The notes under the pieces: generated by a model
Database searches by the model: none
Told to the model about the DNA's origin: nothing
What the model saw: only the letters and a program-made list of their open reading frames with translations
Assembly: GCA_963745075.1 (NCBI GenBank)
Contig: CAVUWV010000031.1
Coordinates: 96,001-160,000 of the forward strand
Reading direction: 5' to 3'
Origin: Candidatus Hydrogenedentota bacterium
GTDB taxonomy: Bacteria; Hydrogenedentota; Hydrogenedentia; Hydrogenedentales; SLHB01
DNA length: 64,000 nt
Made by a program: the position numbers and the translations under genes
Shown here: piece by piece, positions 56,519-60,806 of the stretch
Position numbering within the stretch: the first letter of the stretch is position 1
Layout of the letters: each line of letters starts with the position of its first letter

Positions 56519-56559
56519 GGTTTTTCAACCCCCTGCGTTACAAGTCGGGCTAGTTAGGA

Positions 56560-56574
56560 GCAAGATAGGTGCCA
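56560..56574 (-). promoter_or_regulatory. sigma54 -24/-12 promoter
   Basis: Minus strand TGGCAC-CTATC-TTGC, an exact consensus, about 40 nt upstream of the hybrid kinase. Confidence 0.75.
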
Positions 56575-56640
56575 ATGTGTCAACAATTTGTCAAGTCGGT
56601 TTATGTTAACTCTTTACAACTGTCAATTTGACGAAGAATC

Positions 56641-56696
56641 TGTACATTTTTGTACAGCAATCACCAAAACACGGATTCCCTGTACATTTTTGTACA
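56641..56696. promoter_or_regulatory. Two identical 16-bp TGT-N10-ACA sites, putative enhancer-binding-protein sites
   Basis: TGTACATTTTTGTACA at 56641-56656 and 56681-56696, 40 bp apart. Confidence 0.7.
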
Positions 56697-56837
56697 AACG
56701 AAATCGCCCGGAAGAAGTATGCATATCGGTGTAAGGGACAGGGAGCTATTACTTTTTGGGGACCACCGGTTTCCGGTTCGGGACCGGCTGCCAAAAAGAG
56801 GCTTGCAGTTTACGAAGCGCTGTGGTTAAATAGCGTC

Positions 56838-57126
56838 TTCGCCGTTCCAATGGAGCGGACGAGAAAATGCAAACAAGAGTGTTAGAACGAGAACCGACGG
56901 GAAAACGTGATATGGGCAGCATATTCAAACATGCCGACGCGCAACACGCCGTGAAGCACGGGGTAGCGTGGTGCACCATGTCCACGTTTATTCGTGGCGT
57001 GGCCCGAGTACCCGCCTGCGGTTCTCGTCTCGAGGTGCAGCTATTGACGTAGCGACTTAGAGAAAAAAGCTCAAACAAACCGAGCGCCGCAGGCGAGAAT
57101 CCACCGCCTGCGGCGCTTTTACTTTT
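56838..57126 (+). ncRNA. Candidate structured leader RNA / attenuator
   Basis: Upstream TTGCAG-N17-TTAAAT; long-range stem 56887-56896/57019-57028, internal hairpins and a strong terminator. Not recognised as a known family. Confidence 0.4.
57083..57126 (+). terminator. Intrinsic terminator
   Basis: AGCGCCGCAGGCG-9 nt-CGCCTGCGGCGCT (13 bp) followed by TTTACTTTT. Confidence 0.82.
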
Positions 57127-57328
57127 CGAGTATGCAATCTTTTTTTGGGCGGTTCCGGGTGGTCCGGGGCCGAGTCAATAACCACAAGGAGACGCAGCAT
57201 GAAATTCCGACATCACGACGCCGTGCTCATTACGGTGCCCCGCTGGGGCAAGCGAATGTGCACGAACCGATCCCAATTATCCGGTGATAACGAAAACTCA
57301 AGACGATGTAGAAAAGGAGAGTCCAGTC

Positions 57329-57760
57329 ATGGCACGGTTCAATGCGGAGTTCTGGGAGATTCCAACTCAGTCCGCCTATCTCGATAATATTCCGTCCGAG
57401 CGGGCCTTGTGGTTTGAGACAGATGAAGACCGCGAGCGGCGGTACGCACTGCACGATTTCTTCCGCAGCGTGTTGCCGTTCGTGAAAGACATCATCGATG
57501 CAAAATTGACGGCGCGACAGCGCGAGGTTTTGCGTCTGTATTACTTCTGCAACAAAACGCAGGAGGACATCGCCGCGATGCTGAACTTGTCGCAGTCGAC
57601 GGTCAGCCGGCACCTGTTCGGAACCGTCCGCAATGGGAAGAAGGTCGGCGGGGCACTTCCCAAGCTCCGGCGTGCCATTGAGGAACGGGATCATGTGCCG
57701 ATCCATTCGGCACTGGCCCAGTTGCGGACGCGCTTCGACGAAGCGACGGTCGCTGCATGA
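57329..57760 (+). CDS. Stand-alone sigma70 region-4-like HTH protein
   Basis: AAGGAG RBS; LTARQREVLRLYY...TQEDIAAMLNLSQSTVSRHL; 143 aa with no recognisable region 2. Confidence 0.8.
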   Translation: MARFNAEFWEIPTQSAYLDNIPSERALWFETDEDRERRYALHDFFRSVLPFVKDIIDAKLTARQREVLRLYYFCNKTQEDIAAMLNLSQSTVSRHLFGTVRNGKKVGGALPKLRRAIEERDHVPIHSALAQLRTRFDEATVAA

Positions 57761-59164: not shown

Positions 59165-60806
59165 ATGTCCCGAAGACTCATCGCAACCACCACATTGGCT
59201 ATCACTGTTGTTCTGCTTCCGGCCTACGCCGACCCCCTCGACGACGCAGCCCGAAATGGCGCGCAAGCTCAGGAAGCGTTGCAACGCAGCAAGCGCGTCA
59301 TGGACGCGTGGCTGGCCCGGGCGGACCCGATCACCGGTCTGCTTCAACGCCGGGGCACGCAGGACGTGTGGTACGTGCGGGATTCGGCAGCGGACCTGTA
59401 CCCCTTTCTCGTCATGGCGGCGTACTACACGGATCGCCCCACCTACGACACAACGATGAGCGCCATCCTGCGGAACGAATTGCGCTATTCGCGGCGCGTC
59501 GGCCAGTTGCCGGATAACGTCCCATTCGGTGGGCAAGGCTTCGAAGAATCCCGAAATCGACATGGACGAAATCCTCTTCGGCAATTGCGAGTACGTAAAG
59601 GATGGGCTGCTGCCGTTGTCGGAACTGCTCGGACATGGCCAATGGTACATTCGAATGCGAGGGATCACGGATGACATCATCGCGTACGCGCCGTACGACA
59701 CACCTTTCGGGAAGATGCCGTCGGTAAGCGCCGAAGTGAACGGAGAGCTGTTGCAGGCGTTGGTCCGTCTCGCGTACGCCACGAACGACCCTTCGTACAT
59801 CGATCAGGCCATCCGCATCGGCGATTTCTACTTCCAGGAAGTGATTCCACGGTCGAACGGTCTCCCCCATCTGTGGGACCTCGACGCGAGAAGACCCGCG
59901 TCAGACAAGTTCGTCCTCGCCGATCATGGCAATGAGATTCTCGGGGGCCTCTCCGAACTCGTCATGTATACCAAAGAGACCAAGAACCCGGCCTACGAAC
60001 GGTTCCGGGAACCCTTCACACGACTGGTCCACCAACTGCTCGATGTGGGTCTGAACGCGGACGGGCTGTTTTACACGTCCATCGCATTGGATACGTACGA
60101 ACCGGTCGATGCGCGTCACGCCCACTGCTGGGGCTACCTCTTCAATGGCGTGTATACCGCCTACCTCATCACGGGGGAGGCGCGGTTTCGCGACGCCACG
60201 CTCCACGCGCTCACGAAGGTTGTCGAGAAACCGACGACCTACCTGGACGACCCGGAGGGCAGCGGGCGCAACTATGGTTCCGATGCCTACTCGGACGCCC
60301 TGGAAAGCGCTATCGTGTTTCGCAACCGCTTCCCGGAGATCGTGGACGAGGGAGTGCTCGACACCTGCGTGAAGCGCTTCCTTGCGCGGCAGCGGGAAGA
60401 CGGCATCATCGAGGACTGGTATGGCGACGGCAACTACGTTCGCACAGCGCTGATGTACGCCCTGATGAAGTCGCAGGGCACGTGGGCGGAACCATGGCGG
60501 GACGATCTCAGATTGGGTGCGGTACCGGACGGAGACGGCGTGCTGATCGCGGTTGGCGCCGATCGGCCCTGGGAAGGCCGGATTCGCTTCGACGTGCCGC
60601 GGCACCGCTACGTCTTCAACATGCCGGTGAACTATCCGCGTCTGAACGAATGGCCGGAATGGTTCACGGTGGAGTTGGATCAACTTTATGCCGTCACCAT
60701 GGATGGCAACGAGTTCATTCGAAGCGGCGGCGAGTTGGCTCAGGGATTGCCGGTGACGATGGCCGGGCGGGCGGTCATTGCGGTACATAACGCAAAGACG
60801 CAATGA
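59165..60806 (+). CDS. Secreted putative (alpha/alpha)6-barrel protein, paralog of the 5162-7639 N-terminal domain (apparent frameshift at ~59543)
   Basis: AAGGAG RBS, signal peptide; DSAAD.YPF, EY.KDGL, EVNGE, DHG.E.L.GLSE, WYGDGN, YPR.N..PEWFTVE shared with the paralog. Confidence 0.72.

Follow-up and report, generated by a model that had tools for sequence, protein, structure and literature searches.

In Actinobacteria, the leader of whiB7/wblC comprises a long upstream open reading frame (uORF), an antiterminator and an intrinsic terminator in front of a gene for a small transcription regulator, and it is reported to sense stalled ribosomes broadly (10.1101/2023.06.02.543512; 10.1101/2025.10.10.681568). 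Its regulon is reported to contain tRNA synthetases and amino-acid enzymes along with exporters (PMC7157823), and WhiB7/WblC serves as the model for master regulators that are induced by stalling. Further systems share single features with the locus studied here. In vmlR of B. subtilis (PMC9226507) and in Streptomyces ARE5 (PMC12421871), a ribosome stalled on a uORF opens an anti-antiterminator and there is more than one tier of control. In classical attenuators, i.e., ilvB1 of M. tuberculosis (PMC13236596) and his (PMC4046918), the antiterminator strand is occluded by a ribosome located at the stop of the leader. In the DUF1127 uORF attenuator of S. meliloti (PMC12218461), the ribosome-binding site (RBS) of the uORF pairs with the uORF coding sequence, the pairing being one element of a translation monitor. 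Finally, Sig7 (Orf7) of Tn916, found together with Sig8, is a region-4-only sigma protein that is initially made when a ribosome-sensing attenuator is read through and then activates itself (10.64898/2026.10.01.756105).

Here, we study the leader of a gene for a sigma-region-4 protein (main gene; its product is called the 57329 protein after its start position) within a 64,000-nt stretch of DNA from a Candidatus Hydrogenedentota bacterium (assembly GCA_963745075.1, contig CAVUWV010000031.1, positions 96,001 to 160,000), which we call the window and to which all coordinates refer. We conclude that the leader is most probably a previously undescribed ribosome-sensing switch, not a metabolite-binding riboswitch, and that it probably responds to stalled protein synthesis. 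The element was found neither in Rfam nor in the literature on leader peptides and attenuators, which was covered mostly as open-access main text; no paper was found there that joins Hydrogenedentes and a leader peptide. The parts of the locus are the following.

56715..56725, + strand: box AAGT(A/G)(T/C)GCATA, a putative operator or alternative promoter element for the downstream regulator (38/48 loci)
56803..56831, + strand: sigma70-type promoter with -35 TTGCAG, 17 nt spacer and TG plus -10 TTAAAT (from the sequence, with a predicted start)
56884..56901, + strand: segment 1, purine-rich and reaching the Shine-Dalgarno (SD) sequence of the leader; 5' strand of the anti-antiterminator, i.e., of the closing stem described previously (MFE fold, species-matched pairing)
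56912..57052, + strand: uORF1 of 46 codons (61 from ATG 56867) with a Trp codon at 56969 and a CGA codon at 57005 (leader ORF in 45/48 loci)
57011..57037, + strand: segment 2, the switch strand at the 3' end of uORF1, partner of either segment 1 or the terminator arm (pairing tests)
57083..57126, + strand: intrinsic terminator with segments 3 and 4 and U tract (covariation)
57199..57387, + strand: uORF2 of 62 codons with SD AAGGAG at 57186, crossing the main start in the -1 frame (open frame, CGA bias)
57329..57760, + strand: main gene, encoding a 143-aa protein with a sigma70 region-4 helix-turn-helix (HTH) and no region 2 match (Pfam, structure model)

A preliminary description of this region had proposed a new riboswitch or attenuator with mutually exclusive terminator and antiterminator. 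A base-by-base check found all of its coordinates in the sequence. This holds for the promoter (TTGCAG at 56803-56808, 17 nt, TTAAAT at 56826-56831), the perfect long-range 10-bp stem between ACGAGAACCG (56887-56896) and CGGTTCTCGT (57019-57028), the antiterminator 9-mer CGCCTGCGG (57013-57021) as well as the terminator arms (57083-57096 / 57104-57117) with tail TTTACTTTT. The promoter sequence said to be common with ompA, TGTGGTTAAAT, indeed occurs twice in the 6.8 Mb genome, i.e., here and before ompA. A generic promoter scan made no call at 56803..56831; among the orthologues introduced below, a TTG-N16-18-T[AT]nnnT site is found 50-130 nt before the leader start in 23/33. The ORF reported at 56867-57052 is present, and the likelier start is ATG 56912 (46 codons), which aligns with the start in congeners. 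That ORF had been seen without being taken as the sensor, and both the second ORF and the upstream box had been missed.

In agreement with the earlier description, in which no known riboswitch or T-box was recognized, Rfam holds no family at gathering score for the leader. Rfam matches in the window are limited to one tRNA, and the best local match scores 24 bits given a cut-off of 45. The length of the closing stem had raised the idea of 6S RNA, which was rejected: no local match was found and the 6S RNA of the genome is located on another contig. The leader is single-copy in the genome, i.e., no second full copy was found by blastn of the leader, a terminator scan, an attenuator scan (28 candidates) or model R1.

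To collect orthologous loci, the 57329 protein was searched in 61 genomes, which provided 30 loci; with 18 additional strong matches, the set totals 48 loci including the window. A fixed rule (a terminator and, ending 22-42 nt upstream of it, an ORF of 28-62 codons) is passed by 39 loci, while 5 further loci pass a looser scan and 1 more was added by inspection. That is, 45/48 loci show a promoter, a leader ORF of ~31-60 codons and a stop 22-42 nt ahead of a terminator. The exceptions are one locus where a hairpin is present but the leader ORF is absent, as well as two homologues that are divergent (44-46% identity) and lack the element. All statistics use 33 loci, one per genus, for which six congeners were dropped. 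Here, 31/33 loci pass the uORF rule compared to 1.5 in shuffles, which is partly circular. A covariance model of segment 2 and terminator identifies the orthologous site in 43/61 genomes, composed of 33 training loci, 6 congeners and 4 held-out genera (E 8e-6 to 2e-10). Natural deletions of one tier of the switch are provided by L039 (G022), which lacks uORF1, and by L011 (G013) and L022/L033, where the spacer is short and no full uORF2 is present; these are useful controls.

The 57329 protein matches Pfam Sigma70_r4 (E 1.6e-13) along with related HTH families and no region-2 family. The best structural matches of its model (pLDDT 73.5) are sigma region 4 (Z 9.7, rmsd 3.2, 79 residues); a Foldseek search with the model returned no match at E<=0.001. 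The modeled fold is that of a region-4-only sigma protein, as in the region-4 subunits of split sigma factors (Sig7/Sig8, SigO/RsoA). A search for a region-2 partner gave no HTH_16 match over the cut-off, and among 54 region-2 matches, one belongs to a short frame of 132 aa. The protein's profile retrieves 228 representatives at E<=1e-10, some of them from Latescibacterota and Gemmatimonadota. Beyond the phylum, one scan gave 18 loci, and the Latescibacterota loci that were examined, 4 out of 6, carry a different leader without long uORF. That leader, located ~250 nt upstream of the homologue in L050-L053 (seen in L050, L051 and L052; similar in L046), contains the short hairpin motif GCCGCTAATAACGGT twice, with the second copy inside a terminator-like stem. 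Judged from its sequence, it is possibly a protein-binding attenuator acting on the same regulator family.

In many orthologues, the regulator adjoins ompA and a divergent receiver/histidine-kinase gene. In the window, a sigma54-type site (TGGCAC-N5-TTGC, 56559-56574, minus strand) faces this divergent gene, and two TGTACA-N4-TGTACA pairs (56640-56700) near it are candidate enhancer sites. At 59165-60806, overlapping ORFs of 169 and 425 aa without Pfam match resemble one frameshifted gene.

Next, we consider the fold of the leader. Region 56830-57130 folds at -127 kcal/mol (z -6.4; 0/100 shuffles as good), and both the terminator and the 10-bp closing stem are part of its MFE structure. In shuffles of the leader, a perfect 10-bp stem of long range is found in 20/1000 and the 9-mer complementarity in 2/2000. 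Among genera, 96% of the terminator's cells are paired and 7/11 pairs show double changes, which is reached by 0/500 shuffles (sequence-only alignment). Since the stem sequence is of a common type in the phylum, terminator conservation is weak evidence alone. Among 20 non-orthologous model matches examined in relatives, two are Leu-run leaders and the others are terminators following genes or tRNAs, or lack a clear leader. That this stem type follows many ordinary genes is what one would expect if a constitutive terminator stood behind a small peptide gene and the complementarity were an accident of GC-rich DNA and of the phylum-wide terminator type. We consider this very improbable given the swap tests with matched controls reported below; it is also at odds with the main gene residing behind the terminator and a promoter-like site ahead of uORF1 (the scan covered the sequence ahead of uORF1 only).

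In the swap test, segment 2 of each species (last 45 nt of the ORF) was paired with its own partner and with the partners of other genera. Over 33 genera, segment 2 pairs with its own terminator arm plus loop at -27.2 compared to -21.6 kcal/mol for swapped partners (z -9.7), and with its own leader start (-28..+6, start picked by SD strength) at -24.3 compared to -19.0 kcal/mol (z -8.7). Three control windows yield z values of 0.0, -1.0 and +0.6. A sliding version of the test (five starts hand-corrected) limits the segment 1 signal to RBS and start codon, i.e., to -28..+6 and -15..+15. At least 5 nt of -16..+2 pair with segment 2 in 26/33 loci, while 7/33 show little pairing between segments 1 and 2. 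The signal between segment 2 and the terminator is retained when the hairpin loop is the sole partner (z -3.4), so segment 2 does not duplicate the terminator's 3' arm.

Across genera, covariation in the preliminary pairing register is not in excess and is reached by 145/500 shuffles. The neighboring register 57020-57037 : 57085-57102 is 63% paired; among five measures, 0/500 shuffles reach its per cent paired and its score and 2/500 a third measure, while the other two show no excess. Within the window species, the earlier register is slightly stronger (-29.0 vs. -26.7 kcal/mol); it is also the best duplex in 5 other genera, and its 9-bp antiterminator forms with a probability of about 1 when segment 1 is removed.

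We also folded transcripts ending at the loop with and without ribosome footprints (equilibrium folds; arm capture defined as P>0.5). The terminator arm is captured in 30/33 loci when the uORF1 start is covered, in 20/33 without ribosome and in 8/33 with a ribosome at the stop; the respective probabilities for the window are 0.88, 0.49 and 0.01. A lone ribosome in the middle of the ORF makes no change in this model, so a stall at that position would induce only if ribosomes queued as far back as the start. The role of the anti-antiterminator rests on folding order, because it does not win at equilibrium in 20/33 loci. The helix of segments 1 and 2 can form before segment 3 exists, and its effect in vivo may thus exceed that in equilibrium folds.

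Given a leader ORF stop just upstream of an intrinsic terminator (45/48 loci) and an antiterminator strand that lies inside the leader ORF, excludes the terminator and covaries, we hold with high confidence that the element is a ribosome-mediated transcription attenuator, be its sensor broad or specific. The switch logic and the target gene that had been proposed are thus retained, now backed by species-matched pairing in 33 genera, while the riboswitch half of the proposal is dropped. Since the 5' strand of the stem is the leader's own RBS, it is the ribosome that would open the stem. That is, a ribosome keeping pace would reach the uORF1 stop and cover segment 2, such that the terminator forms. 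With no ribosome loaded, segment 2 would fold onto the leader's RBS and termination would be favored. With ribosomes stalled at the start or queued within the ORF, segment 1 would be covered and segment 2 could capture the terminator arm, which would result in read-through.

A ligand-binding riboswitch or protein-binding leader with incidental ORFs could account for the strong fold of the window leader and for mildly structured ORF interiors (mean z -1.5; 10/33 at -2 or below). But no interior column reaches 80% conservation among the 33 genera and no Rfam family matches, whereas the start, the stop spacing and a frame-specific codon bias are conserved. The domain enclosed by the stem is a reading frame and, not being conserved, is not an aptamer. 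We therefore give this explanation hardly any credence.

The attenuator could still have a specific sensor. uORF1 peptides vary freely, and within-genus changes show no bias to synonymous sites. ATG codons number 57, 8 and 7 in the three frames, and 37/104 CGN codons are CGA in frame compared to 35/138 and 9/108 off-frame (Fisher 5e-4). Asp and Glu are depleted, while Met, His, Arg, Trp, Thr and Ala are raised (Ala 12.8% compared to a 9.9% background). Within codons -33..-20, a window chosen post hoc, we count 26 in-frame Trp (7.3 expected) and 28 Met (8.5 expected). Trp occurs at -29..-26 from the stop in 15/33 loci, and Arg at -15 likewise in 15/33, encoded by CGA in 10/33. Such positions are in line with an attenuator for one amino acid (Trp, Met, or Arg via tRNA-Arg(ICG)) or with nascent-peptide arrest, where Trp would precede an Arg-Ile pair by ~12 residues. 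Speaking against both, no uORF1 leader shows single-codon runs, unlike the Leu-run leaders of the same phylum, 4/33 peptides are without Trp, and the within-genus changes do not favor synonymous sites. We thus rate a specific sensor as rather unlikely. A motif Arg/Lys-X-Arg/Lys near the N terminus, as in macrolide-sensing leader peptides, is not significant in uORF1, and a conserved peptide motif at its C terminus was rejected, as the frame relative to segment 2 differs among loci. The Leu-run leaders, L105 (G035:C469:2969-3085) and L120 (G009:C35:20080-20194), are classical Leu attenuators with 28-codon leaders, followed by genes that we take to be leuA/cimA-like.

The second tier of the broad ribosome sensor that we favor would reside in uORF2. 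In orthologues, uORF2 is SD-led and starts ~110-150 nt before the main gene, behind the terminator. In 30/31 loci with sufficient room, the -1 frame stays open over 105 nt or more ahead of the gene, compared to 16 and 10 for the other frames. Within the first 24 codons, 54/93 CGN codons are CGA, compared to 23/99 and 8/54 off-frame (Fisher 3e-9), 134/693 at gene starts in the genome and 17-21% in non-coding DNA. At least one CGA is found in the uORF2 of 23/29 loci (in the window at codons 4, 20 and 24); of the Arg codons of the main gene, 3.6% are CGA. Among the tRNAs called in the 90% complete genome, CGA is decoded by anticodon ACG alone, with no tRNA-Arg(UCG). A tRNA-Leu with anticodon AAG (G000:C28:71816-71903; ARAGORN), for which no GAG isoacceptor was found, would imply inosine decoding beyond Arg. 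tRNA-Arg(ICG) is reported to decode CGA poorly (PMC6103715) and CGA put into the his leader raises read-through (PMC4046918), whereas rare and frequent Arg codons regulate alike in Salmonella speF (PMC6386406). The latter cautions by analogy against over-reading the CGA codon.

Arg/Lys-X-Arg/Lys occurs at residues 2-25 of uORF2 in 22/29 loci (15.3 in shuffles, p 0.003; residues 2-14: p 0.07). The fixed -1 frame across the main start and the slow CGA codons would also fit a uORF2 that acts through its product, either as an N-terminal extension that +1 frameshifting fuses to the protein or as the region-2 half that a split sigma would otherwise lack, for which the adjacent Sig7/Sig8 pair of Tn916 is a precedent (10.64898/2026.10.01.756105). 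Yet the main gene retains its own SD and start, and conservation among uORF2 peptides is poor (for 29 peptides, 16 pairs reach E<1e-3, several within the overlap), which makes a functional product very doubtful.

As a regulatory tier, uORF2 would damp the main gene: ribosomes passing through uORF2 would cross the main SD and start out of frame, and an early stall in uORF2 would free initiation of the main gene. We found no clear species-matched structure over the RBS of the main gene (best of 7 windows z -2.5) and none clearly hiding the RBS of main gene or uORF2 in 14 windows. Because no covarying structure hides the main RBS, we infer that damping works by occlusion through passing ribosomes. 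Translational coupling is an alternative by analogy, since overlapping uORFs can also activate in this way (PMC13285730).

The box upstream of the promoter is conserved in 38/48 orthologous loci, as would suit autoregulation of the whiB7/wblC type, and a related box was seen by eye before Latescibacterota homologues, whose leader differs. The 57329 protein may bind this box and thereby feed back on its own gene. A sigma54 reading was discarded, as the spacing is unfit by eye. Genome-wide, the box is not enriched (counts like a reversed control), and the first 30 box loci show no recurring gene; among 56 further matches, five precede one MATE exporter orthologue. We counted a strict motif (within ~400 nt upstream, sense strand; background 27/2154) and a looser near-palindromic one (at -125..-35, picked after seeing ilvB; background 22/878 promoter-led genes) for the best 30 loci per search, plus 7 for rtcB. 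The strict box precedes bacterial-type rtcB in 6/22 loci at nearly one offset (archaeal-type 0/14), MATE in 9/30 with three seeds and 6/27 without, and a PLP aminotransferase in 4/31 including one seed; outside the own genus, it precedes ilvB in 1/25, alaS in 2/23 and cimA in 4/24. The looser motif precedes ilvB in 9/25, rtcB in 7/18, the aminotransferase in 9/27, cimA in 6/25, alaS in 4/24, MATE in 4/25 and archaeal-type rtcB in 1/14. These counts are leads, because the target genes were picked from motif matches.

The bacterial-type rtcB at G000:C36:173624-175546 (minus strand) is frameshifted in the assembly and has a box 75 nt upstream. Single box matches are found at L086 (G042), L073 (G047), L192, L200, L202, L215, L216 and G000:C10:239638; the genes behind such matches are Cas10-like, aspartokinase-like, asd, ilvD, hisF and rpoN, along with an unnamed conserved gene in two genomes.

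Taken together, we consider it likely that the leader is a two-tier ribosome-controlled switch that senses a broad slowdown of translation and turns on the sigma-region-4 regulator. Its input would be either a shortage of charged tRNAs for Met, Trp and the slow CGA codons or the action of ribosome-targeting drugs. Controlled genes would probably include rtcB, the MATE pump and genes for amino-acid supply, and feedback would act via the upstream box. A more far-reaching and tentative reading, which we think possible though on balance doubtful, is that Hydrogenedentota evolved a translation-stress master switch without common origin with that of Actinobacteria: two serial CGA-tuned ribosome sensors would gate a self-activating region-4-only sigma subunit driving RNA repair, efflux, tRNA charging and amino-acid synthesis, and the RBS fold-back would distinguish stalled elongation from absent initiation. 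If true, the CGA codons would serve as a readout of tRNA-Arg decoding that depends on inosine.

Among the leaders compared, two features of the present one are unusual: a long-range helix closing a 40-codon ORF onto its own RBS, and a conserved out-of-frame overlapping ORF rich in slow CGA. Both make I-A wobble decoding as a bacterial physiological sensor a testable idea, and the leader, with ~500 nt, can be tested in a laboratory strain.

Each related system differs in further respects. In vmlR and ARE5, the uORF lies inside a local hairpin (3-9 codons in ARE5) and the target is an ABC-F gene; here, the uORF has 31-60 codons, the helix joins its two ends and the target is a regulator. Classical amino-acid attenuators have a run of regulatory codons and control a biosynthetic operon, whereas no cognate codon run is found here, segment 1 is the RBS and the downstream gene is a regulator. 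The S. meliloti pairing involves codons at the uORF start and blocks attenuation, while the one described here is long-range and favors the terminator (PMC12218461). Compared to Sig7 of Tn916, a likeness by analogy, the present gene is chromosomal and single-copy with no region-2 partner found.

The best reading by analogy is that the leader works like that of whiB7/wblC, yet is not homologous to it. Both share the order of parts, presumed broad stall sensing and, for whiB7/wblC, a reported regulon that resembles the candidates identified here. In contrast, the regulator is a sigma region-4 protein (Pfam finds only Sigma70_r4 and related HTH families) where the other is a WhiB protein, uORF1 contains 12.8% Ala compared to 25-40% alanine in the whiB7/wblC uORF, a second overlapping uORF is present, and the box differs and has no fixed distance from the -35 element. 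If true, a regulator in an uncultured phylum that is non-homologous to WhiB7/WblC, yet follows its input logic and has a comparable candidate regulon, would represent convergence and would give intrinsic stress resistance a new family of regulators.
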